The notes under the pieces are model-generated. The model was not told the origin of the DNA. It was given only the letters and a program-made list of their open reading frames with translations, and made no database searches. Made by a program: the position numbers and the translations under genes. 64,000 bases of DNA from Flavobacteriales bacterium (GTDB lineage: Bacteria; Bacteroidota; Bacteroidia; Flavobacteriales_F; PHOS-HE28), in the NCBI GenBank assembly GCA_035325445.1, contig DAOKZW010000002.1:5826-69825 (forward strand), given 5' to 3'. Positions within the stretch are counted from its first letter, which is position 1; each line of letters starts with the position of its first letter. Positions 1-33,715 of this stretch are shown piece after piece.

Positions 1-1130
1 TTCACGCTGATGGCGGCAAAGTCGCCCGTGGTGCCCACTCCACCGGCCCTGTCCCAATAGCCGCCCCCGCACCCGTAGCTCCACAGGTAGCTCTGCTGGG
101 CCATGGTGCTGAAGTAATCGTTGTCGGTGACGTTCTGGTGCCCCACAAGCGGCGCGAAGCCCCTGTATCCATTGGAGGCGAAGGCATCGGAGTAGCCTTG
201 GAAATTGTCGTCCACCAAGCCCCTGACCGTGGCCGTGAAGGCCCTCACCTTCCAGTTGTGCAGCTTGGTGAGGTAATTGCCCATCAGGCCCGTCTCATTC
301 TGCGAGAACATCGGCAGGTTGTAGAAATCAACCCGCCCAACGGCCAGTTCCACTTCGCTGGGCAACACGCTTTGATCGTACTTGCCGTCGCCCGGCACGT
401 TACGGTTGCGCACATCGGTGGCCCAGGTCGCGTTCACCTGGCTGTCCGTCCAATTGCCATTGACATCGCCATAGAACACATCCGCGCTCCACGCCCCTTG
501 GTGGTCGCCATGGCCGTCCGGGGCGAAATTGCCGGAATAAGGCACCGGCACGTGGCCCAGCAGGAAGACCGCCTTGGTGTTCGCCGGGTCGGCGTTGTAT
601 TCGTTCACCACCAGGTTTTTCACCGATGGCACGCTGGCATTGCGGCTCACATCATGCCTCACCACCTTCCAGCCGTCGCCTTCCAGGTCCTGCCTCAGCT
701 GCTCCAACTGTGGTGCCAAGGATTGACTGAAAAAATCGTCCACCAGCAGGATCATTCTTCCCCGGTTTTCCACCATGGGCAGCCGTATGCCTGCATTGAT
801 ATACGAATAGCCTTGGCCCGTATTCGCCGTGGAGCGCACGATCTTGTATTCGTAGGACACGCCAACGTTGACATTGTCATCCGCCCATGTCACCGCCCCT
901 GCGCCCAGCGAGGCCACCGGGTTCCCCCAGGTGGTCGCGCCTTTCACCTTCCGCCAGATCTGATAGCCCGTAACATTGTTCGTGGTCAGCCAGTTCAAAG
1001 TGATGCGCGGTGGCGACACCTGTACCTGCGCCGAAGCCAGAACACTTGCTTCGCGGGCCTGTGCGCGCAATCGGACCGGCAAAAAGCCGGACGCCAGGAC
1101 CAACAAGATCAGCAAAAGCCTACGGGCCAT
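1..1130 (-). CDS. secreted hypothetical protein (signal peptide plus Fn3-like N-terminal region), partial: 3' end lies beyond window start
   Basis: Absent from the ORF track because it has no stop inside the window. The reverse frame from ATG at 1128-1130 is open down to position 3 (checked codon by codon). N-terminus MARRLLLILLVLASGFLPVRLRAQA is a typical signal peptide. Plus-strand ORF 138..1367 is its antisense shadow. Confidence 0.55.
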   Translation of the reverse strand, partial: MARRLLLILLVLASGFLPVRLRAQAREASVLASAQVQVSPPRITLNWLTTNNVTGYQIWRKVKGATTWGNPVASLGAGAVTWADDNVNVGVSYEYKIVRSTANTGQGYSYINAGIRLPMVENRGRMILLVDDFFSQSLAPQLEQLRQDLEGDGWKVVRHDVSRNASVPSVKNLVVNEYNADPANTKAVFLLGHVPVPYSGNFAPDGHGDHQGAWSADVFYGDVNGNWTDSQVNATWATDVRNRNVPGDGKYDQSVLPSEVELAVGRVDFYNLPMFSQNETGLMGNYLTKLHNWKVRAFTATVRGLVDDNFQGYSDAFASNGYRGFAPLVGHQNVTDNDYFSTMAQQSYLWSYGCGGGYWDRAGGVGTTGDFAAISV

Positions 1131-1503
1131 TCCTCAGGTGAATTTGCAAAAGTAGGCCGCTCCCCTGCCCAAGGCAAAGGCGTTCCCTATTCATATTCCA
1201 TCCGGGCCGGGCTGTCATCGCCGATTCCAGGTCCACGGCAGGCACACCTCCGCAGATCCACGCCACCGAATGCCCATGCCTTGTCCGCTTGCATACCCCC
1301 TATAGGTCCGCTTGAACGGCGCCAGAAACGCTTCATGACAATCGGCAGCGCACGCCTCGACGAATAAGCCTAAATTTACGACGAACGGGAAAACGAGCGA
1401 ATCCACTGGCCCGATTCAGCCCATGAAGGGGACCAAACCTTTGCCGCCCTTGGCCGTTTAAGTCCACGCCTGATTTTCTGTACAACAAGGACCGATCCCA
1501 TAC

Positions 1504-4500
1504 ATGTCCCACACGAACGAAGCCGCTCCGGCTTCCATTTTCAGCTACTTTGAACAAGGGGCCGCCTTGGCCCCAAACGCCATCGCGCTCATCGGAGAGC
1601 ACGGTGCATTGACCTATTCGGAATTGAGCGCCCGGGCGGGACGGCTGGCGCACCTGTTGCAAGCCGCCCAGATCGGGCCTGGTGCCAATGTGGGTCTTTG
1701 CTTGGACCGGTCCGCAGAACTGGTCATCAGTGTTTTGGGGATCCTGCAGGCCGGCGCGGCCTACGTTCCCTTCGACCCCTCCTATCCGCCGGAGCGGATC
1801 GCGGCCATGCTGGAAGATGCCCGCCCGCCTGCCGTGATCACCAGCCGGGCACATGCCCACCTTTTCCGTGATGCCGGTGCGAGCACGCTCCTGATCGAGG
1901 ACATGGACCTGGGGACCGGCCCTGCCCTGCAAGGCCCCGGCCCCGCGCAGGGCACCGACCTGTTGTACATCCTTTTCACCAGCGGAAGCACCGGCCGGCC
2001 CAAAGGCGTGGCCATGCCCCACGCGCCGCTGGTGAACCTGATCCAATGGCAGCTACGCACCTCGGTACTACGGGCCGGCGAGCGCACCTTGCAGTTCGCG
2101 CCCATCAGTTTCGACGTCAGCTTCCAAGAGATATTCACCACGTTCGCGCAAGGCGGCACCTTGGTGCTGATCACTGATGAAGACCGGCTCAACAGCACAC
2201 AGCTGCTGCGCAAGATCATCAGCCAAGGCATCAACCGGATCATCGTGCCTTTTGTGGCCTTGCAATACCTGGCCGAAGCCGTGGAGCGCACCGGCGAAGT
2301 GCCTTCATCGCTCAAGGAGGTCTTCACCAGCGGGGAGCAACTGAAGATCACCCCGGCCATCGCCAACCTCTTCAAGCAATTGCCCGGCTGCCGCTTCTGC
2401 AACCAGTACGGCCCCACCGAGGGCCACGTGGTGAGCGAGCTCGAGCTCAAGGGCGACCCGGATGCCTGGCCCTCCCTGCCCAACATCGGCACGGCCATCG
2501 ATAACGTGAAGCTGTACGTGCTCGATGAGCAAATGAAGCCCGTGAAACAGGGTGAGGAAGGCGAGTTGTACCTCGGCGGCGCCTGCGTGGCGAAGGGCTA
2601 CATCGGACGCGACGACCTGACGGCCGAACGCTTCCTTGCCGACCCGTTCGTGGCCGGTGGCCGCATGTACAAGACCGGCGACCGTGCCGCTGAGCTCCCG
2701 AACGGCGAGATCGACTACAAGGGCCGCATCGACGGGCAAGTAAAGGTGCGCGGCTACCGCATCGAACTGGGCGAGGTCGAGGTGGCCATGGAGAAACACC
2801 CGCACGTGGAGCAGGCCGTGGCCACGGTACGCGAAGACCGGCCGGGCCTGAAACGACTGGTGGGCTACTACGTCGCCAAGGGCGAACTGGGGACCAATGA
2901 TCTGCGCAAACACTTGGCCTCCCTCCTGCCGGACTACATGCAGCCTTCGGCCTTCGTGGCGGTGAAGGAACTGCCGCGAACACCCAGCGGCAAGATCGAC
3001 CGAAAGGCGCTTCCCGCCCCTGACGTAAAGCGGCCCGACCTCGACGTTGCCTTTGCGGCACCCGAGACCAGCACGCAGAAGACCATCTCTCAAGTATGGG
3101 CGGACCTGCTCGGCATTGACCGGGTGGGGCTCGACGACAACTTCTTCGACCTGGGCGGCAACTCGCTGCTGAGCATCCAAGCGGTGGCGCAGCTCGAGGG
3201 CCATGGCCTGAAACTGCCCATCGTCAAATTGTACCAGCACCCCACCGCCCGGGCGTGTGCCGCCTATCTCGATGGTGACGCCGGCACGGTGTCGCCCGCC
3301 GAGCTCGCCGCCAAACGGAAGGCATTGGGCACCGCCAAGGGTGATGTGGCCATCATCGGCATGAGCGGCCGATTCCCCGGCGCCGCCAGCGTGGAGGAGC
3401 TGTGGGCCAATTTGCTGGCGAAAAAGAGCAGCATCAGCCAGTGGGCCGCCGACGACATCGACCCGAGCATTCCGGCCGAGCTCCGCAACGACCCCGACTA
3501 TGTAAAGGCACGCGGGGTGATCACCGATGCCGACAAGTTCGACCACGGCTTCTTCGGCGTGAACCCCAAGGTAGCGGCGCTGATGGACCCCCAACAGCGC
3601 GTGTTCCTGGAAACGGCATGGGCCGCCTTGGAGGATGCCGCATACGACCCCGCCCGATTCAACGGGCTCATCGGCGTGTATGCCGGCATGGGCAACAACA
3701 CCTATTACACGCGGAACGTCATCGGCCATCCCGACCTGATCGAGCAGGTGGGCGATTTCGCAGTGATGACGGCCAACGAGAAGGACTACATCGCCACGCG
3801 CCTCGCCTTCGAGTTCGATCTGCGCGGACCGGCCCTGAGCATCCACACTGCGTGCAGCACCTCCCTGGTGGCCATCGCACAGGCCTTCAAGGCGTTGCGC
3901 GACGGTGAGTGCGACATGGCCTTGGCCGGCGGCATCGCCATCACCGTGCCCATCAACAGCGGCATCCTGTACAACGAGGGCGGCATGTACAGCCCCGACG
4001 GGAGCACGCGCACCTTCGACGCCGAGGGCAAAGGCACCAGCTTCAGTGATGGCACGGGCATCGTGGTGCTCAAGCGCCTGGACGATGCCGTGCGCGACAA
4101 GGACCACATTTATGCCGTGGTGAAAGGTGCCGCGTTGAACAACGACGGCAGCGACAAGGCCAGCTTCACCGCACCCAGCGTACGCGGGCAGGCCGAAGTG
4201 ATCGCCATGGCCCAAGCTGACGCCGGTGTTACACCCGACCAGATCACTTACGTGGAAGCGCACGGCACCGCCACCCCGCTCGGCGATCCCATCGAGGTGG
4301 AGGCCCTGACATTGGCATTCGGGGGCAAGCAGGACGGCCACCGCTGCGCCATCGGGTCGGTGAAGAGCAACATAGGCCACCTCACCGCTGCCGCCGGTGC
4401 GGTTGGCGTGATCAAGACCGCCATGGCCTTGCAGCGGGAGCAGATCCCCGCCAACATCGGCTTCGACAAGCCGAACCCGTCGATCAACTTCGCTGATTCG

Positions 4501-7500
4501 CCCTTCCATGTGGTGCAGGACAACCTGGCCTGGCCACGGGTGCCCGGCACACCACGCATGGCGGGCGTATCCTCATTCGGCGTGGGGGGCACCAATGCGC
4601 ATGTGATCCTCGCCGAACCGCCCGTTACCGCGGCCTCCGGCGCATCACGCAGCAAGCAGCTCTTCCTGCTCAGCGCCAAAAGCAAGGCCAGCCTCGACGC
4701 CATGACCGACAACCTCCGCCAATGGATGGAGGACAACGCGGAAACATCATTGGCCGATGCCGCATTCACCTTGCAGGTGGGGCGCCGCCATTTCAAGCAC
4801 CGCCGCCTGATCGTGGGCGGAAGCCACCAGGAAGTGGCCCGGGCCATCGCCGACAAGGATGCCGCCCTCATGGGCACCCGCGAACTCACCGAAGCAGCTC
4901 CCGGCGTGGTCTTCATGTTCCCCGGGCAAGGCTCGCAGTACGTGAACATGGGCCGCGACCTGTGGGAGAGTGAGCCGGTCTTCAAAAAGCATTTCGACAA
5001 GTGCATCCACCTCTTCAGCAAAGAGCTGGGCACGGACCTGCGGGCCATCATCTTCCCGAAACCGGGTGAAGAGGAGAAGGCCGCCGAACAACTCAAGCAA
5101 ACGGTGTACACCCAGGCCGGGCTGTTCACCATGCACTACAGCCTGGCCCAACTGTGGATGGACTGGGGCATCAGGCCGGACGCCCTGATGGGCCACAGCA
5201 TCGGCGAGTTCGCGGCCGCCTGCCTCGCCGGCATCTTCTCGTTGGAGGATGCCGTGAAGCTGGTGGCCAACCGTGGACGCATGATGCAGGAACTGCCCGG
5301 TGGCAGCATGCTCAGCGTGCGCGCCGCAGAGGAGGATGTGGCCAAGCGCCTGCCCGAAGGATGCAGCATCGCCGCCAACAACGGTCCGCAACTCTGCGTG
5401 GCCAGCGGCCCACATGAAGCCATCGCCAAGCTGCAGGCCGAGCTGGAGAAGGAAGAGATCACTTGCAAGTTGCTGGTGACCAGCCACGCCTTCCATAGCC
5501 CGATGATGGAACCGATGGTGGAACCCTACCGCAAGGTGGTGGAAGGCGTGCAATTGAACGCCCCGCGCATCCCCATCATCAGCACCGTGACGGCCGAATG
5601 GCTGAAGGATGACGAGGCCACCTCGCCCACGTATTGGAGCGACCACGTGCGGGCCACCGTGCGTTTTGCCCAAGCCGTGAAGTTCGCATGGCAGGATGCG
5701 GACCCCGCCGACACCAAGGTTGTGGCGGGCTCGCGCGTGATGCTTGAAGTGGGACCGCGTACCACGGCAACCACGTTGGCGCGCCAGCAAAGCACCGATC
5801 CCAAGAAACAAACGGCCGTGTCCTCGCTTGGGGCCGAGGCCGGCAACGGCGCTGAATTGGCGCAACTGCTGAAGGCCGTCGGGGGATTGTGGCAGTCCGG
5901 CATTTCCATCGATTGGGAAAAGTTCCACGGCCAAGAGGAACGCCGCCGGATCAGCATGCCCACCTACGCCTTTGAGCGCATCCGGCACTGGGTGGAGCCC
6001 AATGCCCCCCTGATGGTGGACGGGCACCGTACGGCGGCCGCTACCGCGAGCACCACCGCGAACACAGCGATCGTGGATGCCAGCCTCAGCGCCAAGGACC
6101 AATTGATCGCACAGATCAAGCACCTGCTCGAAGAAAGCTCTGGCCTGGAGTTGGCCAATGCCAGCAACGAGGACACCTTCCTGGAGATGGGCCTCGATTC
6201 CCTCTTCCTGACCCAAGTGGCCACTTCCCTGTCCAAGAAGTTCGGGGTGAAGATCAGCTTCCGGCAGCTCAACGAGGAACTGCCCAACCTGGACAAGCTT
6301 GCGGACCACATCCTGCCACATTGGACGGCCGGGGCGGCAAGTGCCCAAGCACCCGCCGCCAAGGGCGTGGCCGGCGAAGGAAGCCAAGCCACGGGCACCA
6401 ACGCGCTCGAGGATGCGCCCGAACTGAAGAAGGTCTTTGGCGCACAAGCCCGGATCAGCAAGGAGAAGGTGGACGACTTCACGCCCGAGCAGCGCGCCTG
6501 GTTCGACGACTTCGTGAAGCGCTACACCGCGAAGACCGCCAAGAGCAAGGCATTCACCCAGCAACATCGGGCGCACATGGCCGACCCGCGGGTGGTCACC
6601 GGTTTCAAGCCGCAAACCAAGGAACTGACCTACCAAGTGGTGGTGGACCGCAGCACCGGCTGCTACCTGTGGGATATCGACGGGAACAAATACGTGGACA
6701 TCCTGAGCGGCTTCGGCAGCTCCATGTTCGGGTACATGCCCGACTTTGTGAAGGAGGCGCTGCACAAGCAAGTGGACCTGAGCGCGGAGATCGGCCCCAT
6801 GCACCCCTTGGCGGCCGAGGTGAGCGAACTGCTCTGTGAATTGACGGGACAGGAACGCGCGGCGGTGTGCAACACGGGCTCCGAGGCGGTGCTTGGCGCC
6901 ATGCGCATGGCACGCACCGTAACGGGCCGCAGCCTGATCATCTCCTTCAGCGGCAGCTACCACGGCATCAACGACGAGGTGATCATCCGCGGCAGCAAGA
7001 GCAAGAAGAGCTATCCCGGCGCGCCGGGCATCATGCCCGAGGCCGTGCAGAACATGTTGGTGCTGGACTACGGCACGCCCGAGAGCCTGGAGATCATCAA
7101 GGAGCGCTGCCATGAGGCCGCCGCCATCCTGGTGGAGCCCGTGCAAAGCCGCCGCATGGAATTCAGGCCCGTGGACTTCCTGCGCGAGTTGCGCCGCATC
7201 ACCAAGGAACATGGCACCGCGCTGATCTTCGATGAGGTGATCACCGGCTTCCGCACGCACCCCAACGGCGTACAGGCCCTGTTCGGCATCCAGGCCGACA
7301 TCGGCACCTACGGCAAGGTGATCGGAGGCGGCATGCCCATCGGCGCCATGATCGGCAAGCGCGAATGGATGGATGCCCTCGACGGCGGCCACTGGCAGTT
7401 CGGCGACGACAGCGTGCCCGAGGCCGGCGTGACCTATTTCGCAGGCACCTTCGTGCGCCATCCGCTCACCATGGCCGCCATGAAGGCCTCGCTGCAACAC

Positions 7501-8016
7501 ATGAAGGACGAGGGCCCGGCCCTGCAGGAGCGGCTGAACACCATGACCGAAGGCATGGTGGCGCGGGCCAACGACCTCTTCGACAAGTACCAGCTCCCCT
7601 ACCGCTGGGTGAACTTCGGCAGCGCCTTCAAGACCAAATACGACGAGAGCGTAAACTACACGGAGCTCTTCTTCATGTTGATGCGCTACCACGGGGTGCA
7701 CGTGCTCGACTTCCCGCATTTCATCACCACCGCCCATACGGCGGCAGACATCGAATTCATCATGCAGGCCTTGGAGAAGACCTGCAAGGATCTACGGGCC
7801 TCAGGCTTCATGCCGGAGCGCACCTATATGCTGGAAGTGGTGAACAGCACCCTGAACGGCCATGCCCGCAAGCTCAGCGAGCAGGTGATGGAGGCCAACG
7901 AGCCGCCGGTACCTGGTGCCCGCCTGGGCCGCACGCCGCAGGGCGAAACCGCCTGGTTCCTGCCCGACCCCGAGCGCAAAGGGAAGTTCCTGATGGTTGA
8001 ATTGGCTGAGCATTGA
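1504..8016 (+). CDS. hybrid NRPS-PKS megasynthase: A - PCP - KS - AT - ACP - class III aminotransferase
   Basis: Adenylation motifs LYILFTSGSTGRPKGV, FDVSFQE, NQYGPTEG, YKTGD, GRIDGQVKVRGYRIELGEVE. Carrier motif DNFFDLGGNSLLS. KS active site IHTACSTSLVA with EAHGTATPLGDP and KSNIGH. AT GHSIGEFAA with HAFH (malonyl-type). ACP LGLDSLF. C-terminal PLP aminotransferase VITGFR ... GKVIGGGMPIGA. Confidence 0.9.
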   Translation: MSHTNEAAPASIFSYFEQGAALAPNAIALIGEHGALTYSELSARAGRLAHLLQAAQIGPGANVGLCLDRSAELVISVLGILQAGAAYVPFDPSYPPERIAAMLEDARPPAVITSRAHAHLFRDAGASTLLIEDMDLGTGPALQGPGPAQGTDLLYILFTSGSTGRPKGVAMPHAPLVNLIQWQLRTSVLRAGERTLQFAPISFDVSFQEIFTTFAQGGTLVLITDEDRLNSTQLLRKIISQGINRIIVPFVALQYLAEAVERTGEVPSSLKEVFTSGEQLKITPAIANLFKQLPGCRFCNQYGPTEGHVVSELELKGDPDAWPSLPNIGTAIDNVKLYVLDEQMKPVKQGEEGELYLGGACVAKGYIGRDDLTAERFLADPFVAGGRMYKTGDRAAELPNGEIDYKGRIDGQVKVRGYRIELGEVEVAMEKHPHVEQAVATVREDRPGLKRLVGYYVAKGELGTNDLRKHLASLLPDYMQPSAFVAVKELPRTPSGKIDRKALPAPDVKRPDLDVAFAAPETSTQKTISQVWADLLGIDRVGLDDNFFDLGGNSLLSIQAVAQLEGHGLKLPIVKLYQHPTARACAAYLDGDAGTVSPAELAAKRKALGTAKGDVAIIGMSGRFPGAASVEELWANLLAKKSSISQWAADDIDPSIPAELRNDPDYVKARGVITDADKFDHGFFGVNPKVAALMDPQQRVFLETAWAALEDAAYDPARFNGLIGVYAGMGNNTYYTRNVIGHPDLIEQVGDFAVMTANEKDYIATRLAFEFDLRGPALSIHTACSTSLVAIAQAFKALRDGECDMALAGGIAITVPINSGILYNEGGMYSPDGSTRTFDAEGKGTSFSDGTGIVVLKRLDDAVRDKDHIYAVVKGAALNNDGSDKASFTAPSVRGQAEVIAMAQADAGVTPDQITYVEAHGTATPLGDPIEVEALTLAFGGKQDGHRCAIGSVKSNIGHLTAAAGAVGVIKTAMALQREQIPANIGFDKPNPSINFADSPFHVVQDNLAWPRVPGTPRMAGVSSFGVGGTNAHVILAEPPVTAASGASRSKQLFLLSAKSKASLDAMTDNLRQWMEDNAETSLADAAFTLQVGRRHFKHRRLIVGGSHQEVARAIADKDAALMGTRELTEAAPGVVFMFPGQGSQYVNMGRDLWESEPVFKKHFDKCIHLFSKELGTDLRAIIFPKPGEEEKAAEQLKQTVYTQAGLFTMHYSLAQLWMDWGIRPDALMGHSIGEFAAACLAGIFSLEDAVKLVANRGRMMQELPGGSMLSVRAAEEDVAKRLPEGCSIAANNGPQLCVASGPHEAIAKLQAELEKEEITCKLLVTSHAFHSPMMEPMVEPYRKVVEGVQLNAPRIPIISTVTAEWLKDDEATSPTYWSDHVRATVRFAQAVKFAWQDADPADTKVVAGSRVMLEVGPRTTATTLARQQSTDPKKQTAVSSLGAEAGNGAELAQLLKAVGGLWQSGISIDWEKFHGQEERRRISMPTYAFERIRHWVEPNAPLMVDGHRTAAATASTTANTAIVDASLSAKDQLIAQIKHLLEESSGLELANASNEDTFLEMGLDSLFLTQVATSLSKKFGVKISFRQLNEELPNLDKLADHILPHWTAGAASAQAPAAKGVAGEGSQATGTNALEDAPELKKVFGAQARISKEKVDDFTPEQRAWFDDFVKRYTAKTAKSKAFTQQHRAHMADPRVVTGFKPQTKELTYQVVVDRSTGCYLWDIDGNKYVDILSGFGSSMFGYMPDFVKEALHKQVDLSAEIGPMHPLAAEVSELLCELTGQERAAVCNTGSEAVLGAMRMARTVTGRSLIISFSGSYHGINDEVIIRGSKSKKSYPGAPGIMPEAVQNMLVLDYGTPESLEIIKERCHEAAAILVEPVQSRRMEFRPVDFLRELRRITKEHGTALIFDEVITGFRTHPNGVQALFGIQADIGTYGKVIGGGMPIGAMIGKREWMDALDGGHWQFGDDSVPEAGVTYFAGTFVRHPLTMAAMKASLQHMKDEGPALQERLNTMTEGMVARANDLFDKYQLPYRWVNFGSAFKTKYDESVNYTELFFMLMRYHGVHVLDFPHFITTAHTAADIEFIMQALEKTCKDLRASGFMPERTYMLEVVNSTLNGHARKLSEQVMEANEPPVPGARLGRTPQGETAWFLPDPERKGKFLMVELAEH

Positions 8017-8028
8017 GCAAGGAGGATC

Positions 8029-11000
8029 ATGGAGAAATTCATTCAAGAGCCGCGTCTGGTCGCCGTTGATTTCAATCCGTTCGCCGGGCCGGAGATCGCC
8101 CGCACCATCCCCACCACCGAGGCGCAACGGGAAGTATTCACGGCCTCCATGATGGGCCACGACGCGAGCTGCGCGTACAACGAAAGCGTATCCCTGGAGC
8201 TGTCCGGCGAACTCGACCGCGCGGCGCTGGGATCGGCCCTGCAATCCTTGGTGGACCGGCATGAGGCGCTGCGCGCCACGCTGGACCCAACGGGCATGCG
8301 CATGATCATCGCCGGCAAGGCGGAGGTCGCCCTTTCATACAGCGACCTGTCCGCATTGTCCGGGGCGGAACGTGAACAGAAGCTGGATGAGATCGGCCGC
8401 ACGGACATGACCACGGCCTTCGATCTTCACCAAGGCCCGTTGTTCCGCGTGCACCTCATCCGCACCTCGGCACACACCCACCTGCTGCGTCTCACGGGCC
8501 ACCATGCCGTGTGCGACGGATGGAGCCTGGGCATCATGATGGCCGAGATCAGCGGGCTGTACAATGCCGCCAAGAGCGGAACGCCCGCCAAACTTCCCGA
8601 GGCATCACGCTTCAGTGAGTACAGCTTGGCCACCATCGATTTTGCCAAGAGCCCTGAACACCAAACAGTGGAACGCTATTGGATGGACCTGTACAAAGGG
8701 ACCATCCCCCGTATGGACCTGCCCACCGACCGTCCGCGGCCGATGGGGAAGACGTACAGCGGCCACCGCTTGGACCTGCCGTTGACGGTGGAACAGGTGA
8801 ACGCGCTGAAGGGCGTGGCCACCCGCACCGGCGCCAGCTTTGTCACCACGCTGCTCGCCACGTTCGAGGTGCTGCTGTACAGGCTCACCGGCGACACCGA
8901 CCTGGTGGTGGGCCTGCCCGCCGCCGGCCAGAGCGACTTGGGCATGAAGCATCTGGTGGGACACTGCGTGAACCTGCTCGCCCTGCGCAGCCGGATGAAC
9001 GAGAACGCCTCCTTCCAATCCTTCCTGAAGGACCGGCGCACCGGCGTGCTCGATGCCTTTGACAACCAGAAGTACACCTTCGGCACCTTGTTGCGGAAAC
9101 TGAACATCAAGCGCGAGCCGGGGCGGATCCCCTTGGTGCCCATCGTGTTCAACGTGGACATGAACATGGATGACGGCGTGTCCTTCCATGCGCTGGAACA
9201 CCGCTTCATCAGCAACCCCAGGGCCTACGAGAATTTCGAGCTCTTCCTGAACGCCACGGGGCACGAGGACTCGCTGATCCTGGAGTGGAGCTACAACACG
9301 GACCTCTTCGACCAAGCCACGGTGGAGGGCTGGATGCGGCAATTCACGGCCCTGATCGGGCGCATCAGCGCCAACCCCGATGCCGCCATCGTCGACCTGG
9401 CGGGCGATGCGGCACCCGTTGCCGAAACAGCCAAGGTTCCCGCGGAATGGCATGGCAAGGAGACGGCCTTCCCCCAAGTGGACATCAGCACCTTGTTCGA
9501 CCAAGTGGCGGCACAACATGCCGACCGGACGGCGCTGGAACTTTCCGGCAGCACGATGAGCTATGGTGAGCTCCGCGATCGCGTGCACGGCCTCAGCAAG
9601 CTCCTGGCCTCCCTTGGCGTGAAGCCCGGCGAACCGGTAGGGTTGTGCGTGGAGCGCGGGTTCGACATGGTGGTGGCCATGTTGGCCACCCTGCGTGCCG
9701 GCGGTTGCTTCGTGCCTTTCGACCCCGGCTATCCGGCGGAGCGCTTGGAACTGATGTTGGCCGACACTGACGTACGCGTGATGCTCACGCAGGGCCACCT
9801 GGCGAACACACTTCCCGCACATAAGGGCCGCAACATCCTGCTCGAGGATGCGGACATGAGCGGTCAGGGAGGCCCGATGCCGCAGTCCGGCCCCGAGAGC
9901 CCGGCCTACATCATGTACACCTCGGGTTCCACCGGAAAGCCCAAGGGCGTGGTGGTGCCGCACCGGGCGATCATCCGTTTGGTGCACGACCAGAACTTCC
10001 TGCCCTTCGGGCCCGACCTGGTCTTCCTCCAACTGTCCAACATCTCCTTCGATGCCTCCACCTTGGAGCTGTGGGGCGCACTGCTGAACGGGGCCAAGTT
10101 GGTGCTTCAGCCCCAGCAGAAGCCGACGCTGCAGGAGATCGTTCAAACCGTGAAGGACCATGGCGTCACCACCGTCTGGTTCACGGCCGGCCTCTTCAAC
10201 CTGATGGTGGACGAACACCTGGAAGACCTCAAGGGCCTGAAGCATATTCTCGCCGGCGGCGACGTGCTGAGCGTGGCACACGTGCGCCGGGCCCTGGCGG
10301 AGCTTGGGCCGGGCGTTCTCATCAACGGATACGGCCCCACGGAGAACACCACCTTCACGTGCTGCCATGCCATCAACAGCGAGAAGGACCTCACCCCCCG
10401 GATACCCATCGGCGCCCCCTTGCACAACACCACGGTGCATATCCTGGACAGCGCGATGAAGCCTGTTGGCGTAGGCGAGGCCGGCGAGTTGTACACCGGC
10501 GGTGCGGGCGTGGCCCTGGGCTACTGGCACAACCGGCAGCTTACGGACGAGGTTTTCGTCGATGACCCGTTCAGCAAGCGCGCCGGGGCGAAATTGTACC
10601 GCACGGGCGACCTCGTGCGCTGGCTCCCCAACGGGTCCGTGGATTTCATAGGCCGCGCGGACGGCCAGGTGAAGGTGCGCGGGTTCCGCATCGAGCTCGG
10701 CGAGATCGAGAATGCGATCAGCGCGATCGCCGGTGTGAAGGACGGCGTGGTCGTGGTGCGTGACGACCTTCCGGGGGAAAAGCAGTTGGTAGCCTATGTG
10801 GTCCCCTCCTCCGAAGAACAAAAGGCCCAGGAAGACCTGATCAACGCGGTGCGTGAACACCTGCGGGGATCACTTCCCGGCTACATGGTCCCCACGGCAT
10901 TCATGCTGCTTCCGGTGCTGCCGCTCAACCCGAACGGCAAGGTGGACCGCAAGGCGCTGCCGGCGCCCGAACTGCGCGACCGCACGATGGAAGTACGGCA

Positions 11001-11973
11001 CGTGGCCCCGCGCAATGCGCGGGAAACGGCCCTTGCGGAGATCTGGGCGGACCTCCTGAAGGTGGACGGCATCGGCGTGCACGACAACTTCTTCGACCTG
11101 GGAGGCCATTCCTTGATCGGCATCCAGCTGCTGGCCCGCGTGGACGAGCGGATGGGCAAGAAGTTGCCGTTGAACAGCCTCTTCCAAGCGCCCACCATCG
11201 CGCAATTCGCCAAGCTGCTTCAAGACGGAACGAACACCGGGCTTGAGAACTTGGCGCTGTTGCAACCGGAAGGGGACCGCCTGCCATTTGTGCTGGTGCA
11301 CGGCGATGAGGCCAACCACCACATCATGCGCTACCTGGGCAAGGACCAGCCTTTCTACGCCTTCTTCCACCAGGGCGAGGAAGGGGAGCCCTTTGCGCAC
11401 AACTCCGTGGAGGAGATTGCCCAGCACTACATGGGCGAGCTGCTTTCGGTGCAACCCGACGGCCCCTACCTGCTTGGCGGCTATTCCTTCGGCGGGCTCG
11501 TGGCGTACGAAATGGCGCGCCAATTGACGTTGGCCGGCCACGAGGTGCCGCTCCTCGCCCTTTTCGACACGTATGCGCCGAAGGAACACGTGCAGGTGAT
11601 GAAGGAGGAGGAGAAGTTGCACGAGCCGCTGAAGCGCACCGTGATGCGCTGGCTGGTGAAACGCGCGCACGCCAAGGGGCGCATCACCTCGCCGAAACTG
11701 CGGCACTTCTACATCATCGACTCGTACAACCAAGCGATCGAACGGTACAGGCCCGAGCCTTATGCCGGCCCGGTCACGGTCCTCAAAGCCTCGGAATCCA
11801 AAGGTGCGGACGACATGGGATGGCGGAGGCTGGTGAAGGGGCCGTTGGACATCCATGTCCTGCCCGGCAACCACTTCAGCCTGATCAAAGGCGACGAGGT
11901 ACAGCAACTGGTGCGCGAGCTTTCCGTCGTCATCGACCGGGCGGTAAGCAAGCATGCGGTGGAAGCCGTGTAA
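8029..11973 (+). CDS. NRPS termination module: C - A - PCP - TE
   Basis: Condensation motif HHAVCDGWS. A-domain motifs YIMYTSGSTGKPKGV, FDASTLE, NGYGPTEN, YRTGD, GRADGQVKVRGFRIELGEIE. PCP DNFFDLGGHSLIG. Thioesterase GYSFGG. Starts 13 nt after the upstream megasynthase. Confidence 0.9.
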   Translation: MEKFIQEPRLVAVDFNPFAGPEIARTIPTTEAQREVFTASMMGHDASCAYNESVSLELSGELDRAALGSALQSLVDRHEALRATLDPTGMRMIIAGKAEVALSYSDLSALSGAEREQKLDEIGRTDMTTAFDLHQGPLFRVHLIRTSAHTHLLRLTGHHAVCDGWSLGIMMAEISGLYNAAKSGTPAKLPEASRFSEYSLATIDFAKSPEHQTVERYWMDLYKGTIPRMDLPTDRPRPMGKTYSGHRLDLPLTVEQVNALKGVATRTGASFVTTLLATFEVLLYRLTGDTDLVVGLPAAGQSDLGMKHLVGHCVNLLALRSRMNENASFQSFLKDRRTGVLDAFDNQKYTFGTLLRKLNIKREPGRIPLVPIVFNVDMNMDDGVSFHALEHRFISNPRAYENFELFLNATGHEDSLILEWSYNTDLFDQATVEGWMRQFTALIGRISANPDAAIVDLAGDAAPVAETAKVPAEWHGKETAFPQVDISTLFDQVAAQHADRTALELSGSTMSYGELRDRVHGLSKLLASLGVKPGEPVGLCVERGFDMVVAMLATLRAGGCFVPFDPGYPAERLELMLADTDVRVMLTQGHLANTLPAHKGRNILLEDADMSGQGGPMPQSGPESPAYIMYTSGSTGKPKGVVVPHRAIIRLVHDQNFLPFGPDLVFLQLSNISFDASTLELWGALLNGAKLVLQPQQKPTLQEIVQTVKDHGVTTVWFTAGLFNLMVDEHLEDLKGLKHILAGGDVLSVAHVRRALAELGPGVLINGYGPTENTTFTCCHAINSEKDLTPRIPIGAPLHNTTVHILDSAMKPVGVGEAGELYTGGAGVALGYWHNRQLTDEVFVDDPFSKRAGAKLYRTGDLVRWLPNGSVDFIGRADGQVKVRGFRIELGEIENAISAIAGVKDGVVVVRDDLPGEKQLVAYVVPSSEEQKAQEDLINAVREHLRGSLPGYMVPTAFMLLPVLPLNPNGKVDRKALPAPELRDRTMEVRHVAPRNARETALAEIWADLLKVDGIGVHDNFFDLGGHSLIGIQLLARVDERMGKKLPLNSLFQAPTIAQFAKLLQDGTNTGLENLALLQPEGDRLPFVLVHGDEANHHIMRYLGKDQPFYAFFHQGEEGEPFAHNSVEEIAQHYMGELLSVQPDGPYLLGGYSFGGLVAYEMARQLTLAGHEVPLLALFDTYAPKEHVQVMKEEEKLHEPLKRTVMRWLVKRAHAKGRITSPKLRHFYIIDSYNQAIERYRPEPYAGPVTVLKASESKGADDMGWRRLVKGPLDIHVLPGNHFSLIKGDEVQQLVRELSVVIDRAVSKHAVEAV

Positions 11974-11975
11974 GC

Positions 11976-12725
11976 ATGAAGCGCAGCCAGGCGTTGGTGG
12001 TCCATTGCGAGGCCCCCGGTTTCACGGAGGCCACCAGTGGGCATGTGCCCGGCAGCCCGCTGTCCGTACCGCTGGTCTGGTTCAGCCCGCTGGACGCCCT
12101 CCGCGACCGGCTGGACCGGTACATCACCCTATTGGACATGGAGGAGCGCGCACGTGCCGACCGGTTCCGCTTCGAAAGGGACCGGGAGCGCTATATCCTC
12201 GGGCATGGCCTGCTACGTGAGGTCCTGGGGTGGCACCTCGCGCAGCCGGCAGCGCAGCTCGTGATGCCCCGTGAGGAGTTCGGCAAGCCCTTCTTGGAGG
12301 GTCACCCCGTGCATTTCAACCTGAGCGATACCAAGGATGCGGTGCTCGTGGCCCTGCATCGCCTTCCTATTGGGGCCGACGTGGAGACCTTGAACCGCCG
12401 TACCGACCATGAAGAGGTGGCCGGGCACTACTTCACCCCGCGTGAAGTGGCAAGCATCGCCAAGGCGTCCGATGGCAAGCGGCGCTTCCTGGAGCTATGG
12501 ACCCGCAAGGAGGCGGTGCTGAAGGCCTGCGGGGTGGGCCTGATGGACGACCTGCACAGCCTGGAGGTGGGTGAAAGGGAAAACCGGATGACCATCTCCC
12601 ATCCCGAATTCATGCGGCTGGCCGCGCCGGAATACCATGTCCAAACCGCGCTGATCGGGACCGGCCATTTGGCCAGCATCGCTTGCGAAGAGCACTTCGA
12701 CAGGTGCATCCTGCAAAAGGTGTAG
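11976..12725 (+). CDS. Sfp-type 4'-phosphopantetheinyl transferase
   Basis: Motifs FNLSDT, GADVE and WTRKEAVLKACG (W/FxxKEA) are characteristic of Sfp-family PPTases. ATG at 11976 lies 2 nt after the NRPS stop (TAA 11971-11973). The track ORF 11820..12725 is a 5' over-extension. Confidence 0.8.
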   Translation: MKRSQALVVHCEAPGFTEATSGHVPGSPLSVPLVWFSPLDALRDRLDRYITLLDMEERARADRFRFERDRERYILGHGLLREVLGWHLAQPAAQLVMPREEFGKPFLEGHPVHFNLSDTKDAVLVALHRLPIGADVETLNRRTDHEEVAGHYFTPREVASIAKASDGKRRFLELWTRKEAVLKACGVGLMDDLHSLEVGERENRMTISHPEFMRLAAPEYHVQTALIGTGHLASIACEEHFDRCILQKV

Positions 12726-12756
12726 CCTCGGGCCCGGCCTTGCGCGCCCCGGCCAC

Positions 12757-14208
12757 TCAGTCCTCATCACCGTAAAACCGGGGATGGAAGTTGAGCAGGT
12801 AGAGCTGCTCACTGGCCCTGGTGATGGCGGTATACAGCCATCGCACATACTCCCGATCGATCATTTCCTCCGTTACGTAGCCTTGATCGACGAACACGCT
12901 TCGCCACTGCCCGCCTTGGGCCTTGTGGGCGGTAACCGCGTATGCATACTTCACCTGCAACGCATTCACATAAGGGTCTTGCCGGAAGAGCTTGAAGCGC
13001 TCCGCCTTGGTGCGGGCCACGATGCCGGCCAACACATCCTGCGATAACTGGCGCATGCGCGGACCGGGCAATGCGGGCCCTTCCGTGGCCAGCACATCCA
13101 GGATCACCTTCACCTCCAGTTCCCGTTCATCACGCCCGTCCCACCAGGCCACGGTGAGGTCCGCGAAACGAAGTCCGTGCCGCTCCTCGGTCCGGTGCAC
13201 GCGAAGCACGTTCACCTGCTCGCCATTGGCGATCAGGTTGAAGCTTCCGCCCCCCGGCCCGCTCTCCCGGGCCGCCCAGTAGTAGTTGTTCTTCACCACC
13301 ATGAGCCGGTCGTTGGCCTCCAGCTCCTCCTCGAAACCATGTATGCGTGCACGTACCTGCTGGCTGTATTGGTATGCGCGTTTGTTGCTACGGCAGATCA
13401 GGCACACCTCTTCATCGCCATGCCTGGCATAAGCCTCCTCCAAGGCATCCTGCAGGTCGTGGCCATCCACACGCACCACATCGGGATGATCCGTGCTGAA
13501 CCGGGGGATGGCCCTTTCCGTGGGCGCATCATCCCCCGCCCCGGCCCCGTGCATGTCAGCCAACAGGTCCCGCAAGGCCGTGGCGTTGGCCAAGATGCCC
13601 GATTCACCCGCCTGGCGCACCACGTCCGTGAGCTCCACGCTGCCGGCCAGCAGGCCGTACTCACCCAGGTCCTTCACCTCCAAGGCCGGGCTGTGTTCGC
13701 TGCCCACGGGCGGCAACTGCGCCGGATCACCGATCAACAGCAGCTTATTGCCGGGGGAGGCGAACACGTGCTCAAACAGGTCGGCCAGCAGGTCGCGCTC
13801 ATACATGCCCTCTCCGCCCCTGCCGATCATGCTGGCTTCGTCCACCACGAAAAGGGCCTCACGATCCCGGTTGGGGGCCAGCGCCAGGCCGCTGAAGTCC
13901 CCGTCCTCACCGGTCCTGTATATCCTGCGATGGATGGTGCTTGCCGGTGCGCCGGCGTAGGCGCCCAGCACCTTGGCGGCCCTGCCGGTAGGGGCCAGCA
14001 GCACCACCGGGCGGCGGAGGTCGGCCAGCACCTTCACCAAAGCGCCCACCAAGGTGGTTTTGCCCGTGCCTGCGTAGCCCTTCAGCACCAGCGTTGCCCG
14101 GAGCTTCGGGGTGTCCACCAAGCGTTCCAAGGCTGCCATGGCCCTGTGCTGGCCCGGGGTGGGTTGATGGCCCAAACGGGCAAGCAAGCGATCGGCCAAG
14201 GCTGGCAT
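12757..14208 (-). CDS. RecD/TraA-like ATP-dependent DNA helicase (AAA_30 family)
   Basis: Walker A GYAGTGKTT, Walker B LFVVDEASM, helicase C-terminal region. Start assigned to the Met of MPALADRLL (CAT at 14206-14208) rather than the track start at 14313. Confidence 0.7.
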   Translation of the reverse strand: MPALADRLLARLGHQPTPGQHRAMAALERLVDTPKLRATLVLKGYAGTGKTTLVGALVKVLADLRRPVVLLAPTGRAAKVLGAYAGAPASTIHRRIYRTGEDGDFSGLALAPNRDREALFVVDEASMIGRGGEGMYERDLLADLFEHVFASPGNKLLLIGDPAQLPPVGSEHSPALEVKDLGEYGLLAGSVELTDVVRQAGESGILANATALRDLLADMHGAGAGDDAPTERAIPRFSTDHPDVVRVDGHDLQDALEEAYARHGDEEVCLICRSNKRAYQYSQQVRARIHGFEEELEANDRLMVVKNNYYWAARESGPGGGSFNLIANGEQVNVLRVHRTEERHGLRFADLTVAWWDGRDERELEVKVILDVLATEGPALPGPRMRQLSQDVLAGIVARTKAERFKLFRQDPYVNALQVKYAYAVTAHKAQGGQWRSVFVDQGYVTEEMIDREYVRWLYTAITRASEQLYLLNFHPRFYGDED

Positions 14209-15112
14209 GGGCGGTGAAGTTCGGCAGCGCAGCCGGAATGCGAATGCCGCGCTCCCGCCATTCGCCTTCTCCATGCTTCCTTTGTGGTCCACGGGCAACG
14301 GCCCGGCCGCCATGCATACCGATACTTTTCACCCGAGCTACGACCCTGCCCAGGAACACGCTTGGCACCTCAGCTTCTGGCTCTCGCCGGGGCTGCAGGC
14401 ATGGAGCGTGCACGAACGGTCGTCCGGAAGGCTCGTGGGGCTGGCCTCGGGGCCAAACGAAGACCTGCCCTTGCCGGGGCGGCTTCCCGTGAGGCCTTCG
14501 AGCGTGTCCTTCACCGCCATGCCCGAGGTGAGCGCCTTGGTGCCCGAGAGCGCCATGGAGCCCGGCAGCGGCCTGCAACACCTGAAATTGGTGCACGGCA
14601 AGGTGCCCACAGGCCTGCTACGGGATGAACCAGTGGACACTTTGGGGGCGCACTGCATCTACCTGCATGACGAGCAGGCCGAGCTGAACCTGCTGAAACG
14701 CTTTCCCGGGGCCCGCTCCCTGCCTTTGCAAGGCACCCTGATCAGCCATGCCTTGGGCCGCTCGGCCTCCGCGCCGGTGGCCGTGGTACACCGCGCGCCC
14801 AACCGGGTAGACCTGGTGGTCGCCGATCACGGCAGGCTTCTGCTGAGCAACACCTTCTTCGCCACCACCCCGGAAGATGTGCTGTACTACACGCTGTTTG
14901 CCGTGGAGCAGTGCGGCCTGGCGCCGGGGGATATACAGCTTCGCACGGGCGGCACCCATCTCACCGCGGCCGACGAGCATCTGCTTGCCGACTATTTCAC
15001 CTCCGGCCCGGTGCCCACCACCGGCAAGGCCGACCCCGTGCTATCGCTGTTGGCCTTGCCTGATGCACATCGTTGGACCGGGTTGATCGAACAATTCCCA
15101 TGCGCATCGTAG
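14207..15112 (+). CDS. hypothetical protein, DUF3822-like (conserved Bacteroidota gene upstream of rsmD)
   Basis: Family assignment from the gene's position immediately upstream of rsmD/coaD, as in Bacteroidota; no diagnostic motif was read, so the family call is by recall. Precise start uncertain (candidate Mets at 14273 and 14312). Confidence 0.45.
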   Translation: MGGEVRQRSRNANAALPPFAFSMLPLWSTGNGPAAMHTDTFHPSYDPAQEHAWHLSFWLSPGLQAWSVHERSSGRLVGLASGPNEDLPLPGRLPVRPSSVSFTAMPEVSALVPESAMEPGSGLQHLKLVHGKVPTGLLRDEPVDTLGAHCIYLHDEQAELNLLKRFPGARSLPLQGTLISHALGRSASAPVAVVHRAPNRVDLVVADHGRLLLSNTFFATTPEDVLYYTLFAVEQCGLAPGDIQLRTGGTHLTAADEHLLADYFTSGPVPTTGKADPVLSLLALPDAHRWTGLIEQFPCAS

Positions 15113-15648
15113 CCGGCCGCTTCAAGGGCAAACGCATCCATCCGCCGAAGGAGATCGCGGCACGCCCCACCACGGACTTCGCCAAGGAGGCCCTCTTCAA
15201 CATCCTTCAGCACTCCATTGCGCTGGAAGGCATCCGCGTGCTCGACCTGTTTGCGGGCGCCGGGGGCATCTCGCTCGAATTCCTCAGCCGCTGTGCGGAG
15301 GAGGTGATCAGCGTGGAACAGGACCGCACGTTGTTCGCACACCTGCAGCGTACCGGGCGCGAGCTGGGCATCGACAACTGGCACTTGGTGAAGGCGGATG
15401 CCTTCGCCTACCTGAACACCGACCGCAGCCGGTACGATGTGATCTTCGCAGACCCCCCGTTCCATTTGCCCGAAACGGCCAGTTTGCCGGCACGGGTCCG
15501 CGATGCAGGCCTGCTCGCCCCTGACGGCCTGCTGATCGTGGAGCATTACAAGGAACTGGACCTCAGCAACGATCCGTGGTTCGATGTTTGCCGGAAGTAC
15601 AGCAACATCCATTTCAGCTTCTTCACCCCGAAAAGTGAACAACCATGA
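15100..15648 (+). CDS. rsmD: 16S rRNA (guanine966-N2)-methyltransferase RsmD
   Basis: MRIVAGRFKGKRIHPP ... VLDLFAGAGGISLEF ... DVIFADPPF are RsmD signature motifs. Start moved to the Met of MRIVAG. Confidence 0.8.
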   Translation: MRIVAGRFKGKRIHPPKEIAARPTTDFAKEALFNILQHSIALEGIRVLDLFAGAGGISLEFLSRCAEEVISVEQDRTLFAHLQRTGRELGIDNWHLVKADAFAYLNTDRSRYDVIFADPPFHLPETASLPARVRDAGLLAPDGLLIVEHYKELDLSNDPWFDVCRKYSNIHFSFFTPKSEQP

Positions 15649-16109
15649 GCACCGGCAAGCAGATCGCCGTTTTTCCCGGGTCCTTCGACCCGGTGACCAT
15701 CGGGCATGTCAGCATCGTGCAGCGCGCACTCCCCTTGTTCGACAAGGTGGTGGTGGCCATGGGCGAGAACATCACCAAACGCTACATGTTCCCCACGGAA
15801 CAGCGCCTGCGGTGGCTGAAGGAGACATTCGCCGCGGAGCCCAAGGTGGAGGTGATCGCCTTCCAAGGGCTGACGGCCGACCTGTGCCAGGAACTCGGCG
15901 CGCGGTACATCGTGCGCGGCCTGCGCAACAGCACCGACCATGGGACGGAGCGGAGCATCGCACTGATGAACCATGCCCTGCGCGGCGTGGAGACCATCTT
16001 CCTGCCGGCCCTGCCGGAGCATGCGCATATCAGCAGCACCATCGTGCGCGAGCTGCTCGCCAATAAGGCCGACGTTTCCGCGTTCGTTCCTTCTGCGGTA
16101 CGCCCCTGA
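15645..16109 (+). CDS. coaD: phosphopantetheine adenylyltransferase
   Basis: IAVFPGSFDPVTIGHVSIV (HxGH nucleotidyltransferase motif) and C-terminal ISSTIVRE. Overlaps rsmD stop by 4 nt. Confidence 0.9.
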   Translation: MSTGKQIAVFPGSFDPVTIGHVSIVQRALPLFDKVVVAMGENITKRYMFPTEQRLRWLKETFAAEPKVEVIAFQGLTADLCQELGARYIVRGLRNSTDHGTERSIALMNHALRGVETIFLPALPEHAHISSTIVRELLANKADVSAFVPSAVRP

Positions 16110-18227: not shown

Positions 18228-18900
18228 GGATCCCCGCCTCGAACCGGCATTGAAGATCGCCGAATTCCTTCTGCGAATAAAGGCCGTGAGGCTTGAACCT
18301 CAAAACCCGTTCACCTGGGCCAGCGGTTGGAAGAGCCCGATCTATTGCGACAACCGCAAGACGCTGAGCCATCCGGTGATGCGCACGTTCATCCGCCAGC
18401 AGTTCGTGGAAGCCATCCAGGACAAGTTCGGCAAGCCGGACATGATCGCGGGCGTGGCCACGGGCGGCATCGCACATGGTGCCTTGGTGGCCCAGGAACT
18501 GGGGCTTCCCTTCATCTATGTGCGCAGCTCGGCCAAGGGCCACGGCCTGAAGAACATGGTGGAGGGCGACCTTTCACAGGGCCGGAGCGTGGTGGTGGTG
18601 GAGGACCTGGTGAGCACCGGGAAGAGCAGCCTGCAGGCCGTGGCCGCGCTGCGCGAGGAGCAGTGCGAAGTAAAAGGCATGGTGAGCATATTCACATACG
18701 GGCTGAAGGATGCCACGGAAGCCTTTGCCAAGGAGCGCGTGCGCCTCTATGCATTGACGAACTACAACATCCTGCTGAAGCAGGCCATTGCCGACAACTA
18801 CATCACCGAAAAGGACCTGCAGTCCTTGAACAGTTGGCGCGAAAACCCCGCCGAATGGGGCGGCACGGCCGCGGCCACTGCCAGCGGCGCAACAGCATAA
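18226..18900 (+). CDS. pyrE: orotate phosphoribosyltransferase
   Basis: PRPP-binding motif VVVVEDLVSTGKS. The N-terminus MDPRLEPALKIAEF and overall length match PyrE. The track ORF 17917..18900 is an over-extension; ATG at 18226. Confidence 0.85.
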   Translation: MDPRLEPALKIAEFLLRIKAVRLEPQNPFTWASGWKSPIYCDNRKTLSHPVMRTFIRQQFVEAIQDKFGKPDMIAGVATGGIAHGALVAQELGLPFIYVRSSAKGHGLKNMVEGDLSQGRSVVVVEDLVSTGKSSLQAVAALREEQCEVKGMVSIFTYGLKDATEAFAKERVRLYALTNYNILLKQAIADNYITEKDLQSLNSWRENPAEWGGTAAATASGATA

Positions 18901-18930
18901 GAGCCGCCACCACAGCCCCAAGGCCAACAC

Positions 18931-19332: not shown

Positions 19333-19427
19333 GGCCCGTGCCTGCCCAGGCCGCCCAACTTCCAAAAAGTGCAACGAACCGGACATCCGCCCCGCGGGTG
19401 CTCCAATTTCGTGGGCACGCTCGCGCC

Positions 19428-33711: not shown

Positions 33712-33715
<4 letters not shown>
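33284..33715 (+). CDS. small secreted hypothetical protein
   Basis: Signal peptide MKTLLTLITVLLAAPLALAQ. Track ORF begins 33 nt upstream at 33251. Confidence 0.45.

Follow-up and report, generated by a model that had tools for sequence, protein, structure and literature searches.

A three-gene NRPS-PKS-aminotransferase operon of a Flavobacteriales bacterium and its predicted prolyl-primed, beta-aminated pseudodipeptide product

We analyzed a stretch of 64,000 nucleotides from a Flavobacteriales bacterium (GenBank assembly GCA_035325445.1, contig DAOKZW010000002.1, positions 5,826 to 69,825 of the forward strand), hereafter called the window, and focused on the assembly-line cluster at positions 1504..12725. 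The cluster is 11.2 kb in size and consists of three co-directional open reading frames (ORFs) encoding a hybrid nonribosomal peptide synthetase-polyketide synthase (NRPS-PKS; gene 1), an NRPS termination module (gene 2), and a 4'-phosphopantetheinyl transferase (PPTase), with intergenic gaps of 12 nt between gene 1 and gene 2 and 2 nt between gene 2 and the PPTase gene. Judged from its sequence, this is a real and intact three-gene operon, which encodes a bimodular hybrid line together with its activating PPTase. The GC content is about 63% across the window. Type IX secretion system (T9SS) sorting tails and DUF3822 are present in the window and its relatives are labelled Flavobacteriales, in agreement with the Bacteroidota origin proposed by a first-pass annotation that had been made from the letters and ORFs alone.

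Domain annotation was performed by a Pfam profile search of the window ORF translations at a cutoff of E≤0.001. Gene 1 matched AMP-binding (residues 16-366, E = 1e-73) plus AMP-binding_C, two stretches of PP-binding, the N- and C-terminal ketoacyl-synt families with ketosynthase-acyltransferase (KS-AT) linker families, Acyl_transf_1 (residues 1136-1397, E = 2e-51), and Aminotran_3 (residues 1710-2070, E = 4e-51). Gene 2 matched Condensation (residues 25-455, E = 2e-86), AMP-binding (490-833) plus AMP-binding_C, PP-binding (1001-1064), and Thioesterase (1109-1298, E = 8e-29), and it could be aligned from end to end with the solved termination modules of SrfA-C (2VSQ), EntF, and AB3403. Since the E-values across the three genes range from 1e-10 to 1e-86, chance matches are of no concern. 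The families follow one another in the order read by the first-pass annotation, that is, adenylation, peptidyl carrier, KS, AT, acyl carrier, and aminotransferase domains (A-PCP-KS-AT-ACP-AmT) and then condensation, adenylation, peptidyl carrier, and thioesterase domains (C-A-PCP-TE; Table 1), and both Aminotran_3 and Thioesterase were recovered in the domain search it had proposed. As it had also stated, no ketoreductase (KR), dehydratase (DH), or enoylreductase (ER) family was matched in gene 1 or gene 2 at this cutoff, and the spacer between the AT and the ACP is only about 140 residues long and leaves no room for such a domain.

Table 1. Features of the operon and of the region upstream, in window coordinates (aa, residue numbers of the gene product).
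Feature	Position	Strand	Basis
Divergent intergenic region, presumed promoter region	1131..1503	.	Between minus-strand secreted protein gene and gene 1
Gene 1, hybrid NRPS-PKS, 2170 aa, A-PCP-KS-AT-ACP-AmT plus conserved C-terminal tail	1504..8016	+	Pfam; homologues
A1 adenylation domain, aa 16-497, code DVQIFSQVVK, Pro-type	1549..2994	+	Pfam, alignment
PCP1, aa 527-589, Ser554	3082..3270	+	Pfam, alignment
KS, aa 614-987, Cys784/His920/His959	3343..4464	+	Pfam, alignment, solved homologues
AT, aa 1136-1397, Ser1232, HAFH at 1328-1331, malonyl type	4909..5694	+	Pfam, alignment
ACP, about aa 1540-1610 (approximate boundaries), Ser1566	6121..6333	+	Second PP-binding stretch; invariant GLDSL serine
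AmT, aa 1660-2105 (Pfam core 1710-2070), PLP Lys1938	6481..7818	+	Aminotran_3; MycA AMT alignment
Tail C-terminal to the AmT, probably for docking to gene 2 (predicted function)	7819..8013	+	Split versus fused homologues
Gene 2, NRPS termination module, 1314 aa, C-A-PCP-TE	8029..11973	+	Pfam; SrfA-C-type alignment
C domain, aa 25-455, HHAVCDG	8101..9393	+	Pfam, alignment
A2 adenylation domain, aa 490-971, code DALWLGGTFK (Val)	9496..10941	+	Alignment
PCP2, aa 1001-1064, Ser1028	11029..11220	+	Pfam, alignment
TE, aa 1109-1298, Ser1153/Asp1180/His1282	11353..11922	+	Pfam, alignment
Sfp-type 4'-phosphopantetheinyl transferase, 249 aa	11976..12725	+	AASDHPPT_N (PF22624) and ACPS (PF01648)

To examine the catalytic residues, we aligned homologues from related loci, 43 of gene 1 and 62 of gene 2. 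Relatives of the AmT were found in 505 stretches of a species-representative genome set, and the loci described here are the best 80 of the 505. The KS motifs TACSTS, HGTAT, and KSNIGH, the AT motifs GHSIG and HAFH, and the pyridoxal 5'-phosphate (PLP)-lysine motif YGKVIGGG of the AmT are invariant in the 43 gene-1 sequences, and the HHAVCDG motif of the C domain and the GYSFG motif, Asp, and His of the TE are invariant in the 62 gene-2 sequences. The carrier domains contain the motifs GGNSL, GLDSL, and GGHSL, and their serines are invariant among the aligned homologues. The KS cysteine and the carrier serines, whose possible inactivity had been a concern, are thus present and conserved, and the HAFH motif is that of the malonyl-type AT proposed initially. 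Because all of the catalytic residues are invariant in these homologues, we consider the cluster intact.

The boundaries between the three genes were examined as well. Gene 2 opens with its C domain 12 nt past gene 1, and homologues in which the two are fused (AmT-C-A-T-TE, where T is a carrier domain) exist; the C domain of gene 2 appears to be placed to accept a beta-aminoacyl-ACP from gene 1. A tail of 65-100 residues follows the AmT in most of the split homologues and is missing from most of the fused ones. This pattern, retention in split and frequent loss in fused versions, fits a docking role, and the C-terminal tail of gene 1 is probably a docking element for gene 2. The PPTase was correctly identified as Sfp-type by the first-pass annotation, as both AASDHPPT_N and ACPS are present in the two-lobed arrangement and the length of 249 residues agrees with the expected 230-250 or so, but its start needed to be moved. 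The ORF as listed, 11820..12725, overlaps gene 2, while an ATG at 11976 lies 2 nt after the gene 2 stop codon (11973). Based on the position of this stop codon and on homologue alignment lengths of 203-258 residues, the ATG at 11976 is most likely the true start. Upstream of gene 1, a sigma-70 scan, which does not cover Bacteroidota promoters, returned no promoter, and terminator matches were fewer than expected from shuffled sequence, a result that is uninformative for Bacteroidota.

Gene 1 contains an Aminotran_3 domain, similar to glutamate-1-semialdehyde (GSA) aminomutase, which is fused directly after the ACP of the KS-AT-ACP module. This domain aligned over 446 residues with the MycA AMT structures 6KFM, 6KFR, and 6KFU, and the match to 6KFM scored 418 bits (E = 6e-124), whereas the best free-standing GSA aminomutase scored only 172 bits. 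The PLP-lysine motif is common to the AmT and the MycA AMT, and Lys1938 is invariant in the 43 sequences. As far as sequence can tell, the module carries every feature that defines a MycA-type AMT module. The KS-AT didomain has its nearest solved match in 8XJY, which is annotated only as 'Polyketide synthase', followed by CurL; in 8XJZ the polyketide synthase of 8XJY was co-deposited with a 'Peptide synthetase'.

In order to read the specificity codes, 125 A domains of this family were aligned with MAFFT. The canonical Pro, Gly, Val, Thr, and Ser codes (DVQFIAHVVK, DILQLGMIWK, DAFWLGGTFK, DFWNIGMVHK, and DVWHFSLVDK) were recovered elsewhere in this alignment, indicating that the code columns are valid. 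The full codes are DVQIFSQVVK for A1, with D235 and K517 present, and DALWLGGTFK for A2, and the partial readings D-V-Q and D-A-L of the first-pass annotation proved correct. A hand-read A2 code, DALFIAGTFK, was discarded because positions 278, 299, and 301 had been misregistered. We take DALWLGGTFK to be a Val code. The A1 code is invariant in all 38 of the 38 close-clade loci, and it agrees with the canonical Pro code DVQ(F/L/Y)IAHVVK at six of ten positions; the code DVQFMAQVVK of the distant tier agrees at eight, and the nearest relatives are canonical. A1 is 49% identical to loading domains carrying DVQFIAHVVK, compared with about 35% for Gly- and Val-type domains, and DVQFIAHVVK is the code of the nearest loaders outside the family. 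The best solved matches of A1 are amino-acid A domains of NRPSs, such as LgrA, TycB, and TycA, and not fatty-acyl ligases; among the strongest single-stretch matches is TycB, the first module of which we take to be proline-activating. Since A1 has D-V-Q and V-V-K in common with the Pro code and is 49% identical to the Pro-code loaders, we assign it as Pro-type. Its substrate is presumably a cyclic imino acid, with L-proline the most probable; the main alternatives are pipecolate and a modified proline.

Based on these observations, we suggest, with a probability of about 0.6, that this operon makes a proline-primed, malonate-extended, beta-aminated, and valine-coupled pseudodipeptide that is released by the TE. 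From the chemistry of the families, the PPTase would convert the three carrier domains to their holo forms, and A1 would activate L-proline or a close analogue and load it on PCP1. The AT, with its HAFH motif, would load malonyl on the ACP, and the KS would condense the prolyl unit with it to 3-oxo-3-(pyrrolidin-2-yl)propanoyl-S-ACP. Since no KR is present, the beta-keto group would persist and be available to the AmT. MycA AMT moves an amine from glutamine via PLP onto an ACP-bound beta-keto thioester (PMC3870968). By analogy, the PLP domain of gene 1 would transaminate the ketone, with glutamine as the probable donor, and yield 3-amino-3-(pyrrolidin-2-yl)propanoyl-S-ACP. In this intermediate, a beta,gamma-diamino acid, the pyrrolidine ring would supply the gamma nitrogen. 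Gene 2 would then use its C domain to couple the beta-aminoacyl donor to Val-S-PCP2. Release by hydrolysis would give (3-amino-3-(pyrrolidin-2-yl)propanoyl)-Val (C12H23N3O3, [M+H]+ 258.181), and alternatively lactamization via the beta-amine would give a seven-membered 1,4-diazepane-2,5-dione ([M+H]+ 240.171). The logic of malonate extension, transamination, condensation, and TE release had been put forward in the first-pass annotation, and with an AmT close to MycA AMT and a SrfA-C-like gene 2 it is the best-supported reading. The 3,4-diamino acid product proposed there is retained in form and refined in one respect: given a prolyl primer, the 4-amino group would be the nitrogen of the pyrrolidine ring.

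Here, we need to consider several points that weigh against this assignment. First, A1 agrees with only six of ten Pro positions, with Q replacing H at 322 and S replacing A at 301, substrates were assigned by comparison with published Stachelhaus codes, and pipecolate or another imino acid is a possible substrate. The same line logic with pipecolate, a substituted proline, azetidine-2-carboxylate, or a non-cyclic amino acid would produce a different beta,gamma-diamino head group. We regard such a substrate as rather unlikely. In its favor, four positions separate the close-clade code DVQIFSQVVK from DVQFIAHVVK, and the H322Q change recurs through the family, in DVQFIAQVVK and DVQFMAQVVK. Q at position 322 is presumably also found in pipecolate-activating domains. 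Against it, the codes form a continuum from canonical Pro to the window code inside one homologous family, and in the relatives examined the gene pair was accompanied by neither a lysine cyclodeaminase gene nor a proline-modifying gene. Second, the product and the outcome of the TE step are predictions only. Third, the secondary amine gamma to the thioester could cyclize early to a pyrrolizidinone, which would rival transfer to gene 2. Finally, one relative (L056) has gene 1 without gene 2.

The last two points bear on self-release from gene 1, in which 1-aminopyrrolizidin-3-one would form by attack of the ring nitrogen on the ACP thioester and gene 2 would either be unnecessary or work on something other than this chain. 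Gamma-amino thioesters readily lactamize. In L056, a contig of 2.5 Mb labelled Gemmatimonadaceae, gene 1 (5060..11686, 75% identity) stands alone among housekeeping genes, and neither gene 2 nor a TE or any other NRPS lies within 10 kb of it, so that self-release may occur in some carriers. However, of the 77 loci in which gene 2 was matched, 74 have it directly 3' of gene 1 (in the three others a second C-A-PCP-TE gene lies between them), the two are fused in several lineages, the HHxxxDG motif of its C domain is intact, and the conserved C-terminal tail of gene 1 resembles a docking element. For the window we therefore consider self-release improbable, and transfer to gene 2 is preferred.

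We then compared the operon with its relatives. Gene 1 is a 100% match to the database cluster P0001, and more than 120 further clusters with an identical Pfam set are 76-86% identical to it; those that are named are 'MAG: Flavobacteriales bacterium', where MAG is a metagenome-assembled genome. About 65 of the loci are from uncultured Flavobacteriales or Bacteroidota MAGs, many of them from wastewater or activated sludge, two are from MAGs labelled Gemmatimonadaceae, and three are from MAGs labelled Verrucomicrobiota. The cultured Parapedobacter luteus DSM 22899, P. tibetensis, and Mucilaginibacter arboris belong to a tier at 57-60% identity. Several of the loci used here apparently come from MAGs of Danish activated sludge, and a study of these MAGs reported NRPS-PKS hybrids mostly in Flavobacteriales, two modules as the median, and no biosynthetic gene cluster that grouped with MIBiG (PMC9765116). 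Gene 1 and gene 2 also occur together in the Verrucomicrobiota-labelled MAGs (L060, L061, and L065, about 70% and 56% identity), and these copies, together with those labelled Gemmatimonadaceae, point to transfer between phyla.

The same architecture was found in a survey of the 150 nearest relatives of the AmT domain among representatives clustered at 50% identity. The commonest form was A-T-KS-AT-T-AmT with a C-terminal tail (38 complete), and several were single fused A-T-KS-AT-T-AmT-C-A-T-TE proteins. The loading codes were mostly Pro-type, and the downstream codes were mostly Gly or Val. The recurrence of the same ten-domain architecture indicates a recurrent unit and not a one-off. The first-pass annotation had called the cluster minimal and unusual; minimal it is, but a ten-domain line this widespread, whether split or fused, is not unusual.

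Gene 1 and gene 2 keep their order across relatives whose identity ranges from 85% to 45%. The conserved neighborhood of the close clade comprises the divergent secreted protein gene, gene 1, gene 2, the PPTase gene, a convergent RecD-like helicase gene, DUF3822, and a CoaD-like gene, whereas outside it only gene 2 and sometimes the PPTase gene accompany gene 1 within the fetched flanks, in which the neighborhoods were read. When 1504..17626 was compared with L001-L070, the identity was about 82% for gene 1, 72% for the CoaD-like gene, 66% for the helicase, 60% for gene 2, 50% for the PPTase, and 45% for DUF3822. Gene 1 is thus the best-conserved gene of the neighborhood, above every syntenic neighbor, and conservation above that of housekeeping neighbors suggests that the molecule matters to the hosts. 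Among the domains, the identities were 89% for KS, 89% for AmT, 85% for AT, 79% for A1, 65% for C, 62% for A2, and 51% for TE. These values also bear on whether the AmT step is skipped or inactive, which would lead to a beta-keto amide or a proline-derived bicyclic tetramic acid; an aminoacyl unit extended by malonate without reduction is the classic tetramate route. However, the AmT is the best-conserved domain (89% in the close clade, 65% for the distant tier). It has an invariant PLP lysine and is closely homologous to MycA AMT, which is active, and we consider a skipped step very unlikely. Transamination by the AmT is the expected course.

In contrast to module 1, module 2 varies by lineage. 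Val-type A2 codes dominate in the close clade, while some loci have the Ile-like code DAFFLGITFK or other hydrophobic codes, the Sphingobacteriia/Chitinophagia tier has the Gly code DILQLGMIWK, and one locus has the Asn code DATKVGEVGK. Three loci, L011 (10547..18563), L016, and L027, contain two tandem C-A-PCP-TE genes downstream of gene 1; both encode a TE, and their codes differ, DALVMGGVMK (DAIVMGGVMK in L027) in the first and DALWLGGTFK in the second. This arrangement suggests that the tandem termination modules are two alternatives served by one upstream module. In L009, a gene for a stand-alone type II thioesterase of 241 residues (15584..16309) lies between gene 2 and the PPTase gene, and a similar gap of about 0.9 kb separates these genes in several other close relatives, for example L001, L028, L044, and L045. 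A constrained module 1 and a diversifying module 2 point to a family of related small molecules with a fixed diamino head group.

In P. luteus DSM 22899 (L072, 3640..20345), the gene pair sits inside a polysaccharide locus among five GT2 glycosyltransferase genes and a gene for a Wzx-like flippase, the PPTase gene is not adjacent, and the A2 code is Gly-like. Together with the conservation of gene 1 above that of its housekeeping neighbors, this context would suit a product that is a building block attached to a cell-envelope polymer and not a free metabolite. Such a role has little to recommend it for the operon described here, as neither the window nor the close clade shows a polysaccharide context and the presence of a TE implies that the product leaves its carrier. 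We accordingly keep to a pseudodipeptide set free by the TE.

Genes around the operon were also inspected. The upstream secreted protein gene (<3..1130) runs off the start of the window on the minus strand, divergent from gene 1, and encodes a signal peptide and an Fn3-like N-terminal segment, without a Pfam family match. The first-pass annotation was right that this protein is secreted and Fn3-like, but its orientation had to be corrected. A plus-strand ORF at 138..1367 was rejected as the upstream gene because composition and six-frame translation mark it as an antisense shadow, and its tblastn conservation accordingly reflects the minus-strand gene. The minus-strand gene is syntenic in about 40 relatives and absent from the distant tier; since nothing links the secreted protein to the pathway outside the close clade, it was left out of the pathway. 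The ABC exporter at 18327..21251, which falls beyond the fetched flanks, was likewise left out, as nothing links it to the pathway. The CoaD-like cytidylyltransferase gene (15645..16109), 3 kb downstream of the PPTase gene, is syntenic in relatives, and its position is probably coincidental. A FadD-like AMP-binding enzyme is encoded at 33712..35478 without evident link to the cluster. Further downstream, a minus-strand defense island (40318..51041) contains a type I restriction-modification system with HsdR (40318..44091), HsdS (47737..49017), and HsdM (49014..51041), interrupted by two ABC-3C genes, DUF3732 (44095..46116) and CTD7 (46541..47740). The GC content falls from 0.63 to 0.52 at 44-48 kb in this island, and the HsdR ORF also has an IS200-like Y1 transposase match at residues 385-461.

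If the prediction is true, three genes in 11.2 kb provide a very small route to a beta,gamma-diamino acid scaffold, for which we found no characterized assembly line, and would be a convenient chassis for engineering amine-rich pseudopeptides. What stands out here is the predicted scaffold and the unusual combination of a fixed head module with a diversifying and sometimes duplicated termination module, while the enzymology itself is unsurprising. Members of the family are common among the abundant, uncultured Flavobacteriales of activated sludge, and the cultured carriers P. luteus DSM 22899, P. tibetensis, and M. arboris make the question directly testable. More tentatively, the operon might be the founding example of a widespread prolyl-primed beta-amination family that makes vicinal-diamine pseudodipeptides from a constrained head module and interchangeable termination modules, with a product of ecological importance in wastewater Flavobacteriales, for example in metal binding or bestatin-like aminopeptidase inhibition; this wider view is doubtful at present.

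Finally, we compared the line with known systems. It is an orphan of a known assembly-line kind, with textbook enzymology and a product that is undescribed as far as we found; a literature search on the domain string, Bacteroidota AmT, vicinal diamine, and prolyl/beta-amino terms returned no described product or paper on this architecture. Gene 2 has the same C-A-PCP-TE layout as SrfA-C, EntF, and AB3403, but its donor would be a PKS ACP with a beta-amino acyl chain, and its upstream module is on a separate protein. MycA reportedly uses a fatty-acyl ligase primer and a trans-AT and is followed by many NRPS modules; the beta-amino fatty acid that it makes is long-chain and goes into a cyclic lipoheptapeptide. 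Unlike MycA and ItuA (mycosubtilin and iturin, Bacillus), the window line has an NRPS A-domain primer with a Pro-type code and a cis AT and ends after one more residue; with an amino-acid-type A1 (D235, K517, and the Pro-type code) and one further module only, it does not belong to the iturin family. Like them, it has a carrier-KS-carrier-AMT unit followed by C-A-PCP, in which the AMT makes a beta-amine from an ACP-bound beta-keto thioester before the C domain forms the amide (PMC3870968). In the KS-AT-ACP-AMT modules of McyE and NdaF (microcystin and nodularin) an in-line AmT likewise adds a beta-amino group ahead of an NRPS C domain. However, these modules and the PKS-AmT modules of cyanobacterial or marine lipopeptides, for example the flavipulchrins (PMC12819058), aminate polyketide or fatty-acyl chains within long lines, and none of them is known to start directly from an aminoacyl-PCP and thereby yield a vicinal-type diamine, as is predicted for the window line. 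Prolyl priming itself has a parallel, since in the detoxin/rimosamide (detoxinine) pathway a prolyl carrier is reportedly extended by one malonate on a hybrid NRPS-PKS. There a KR is said to reduce the beta-keto group to a hydroxyl, whereas the window line has no KR and its AmT would give an amine instead.

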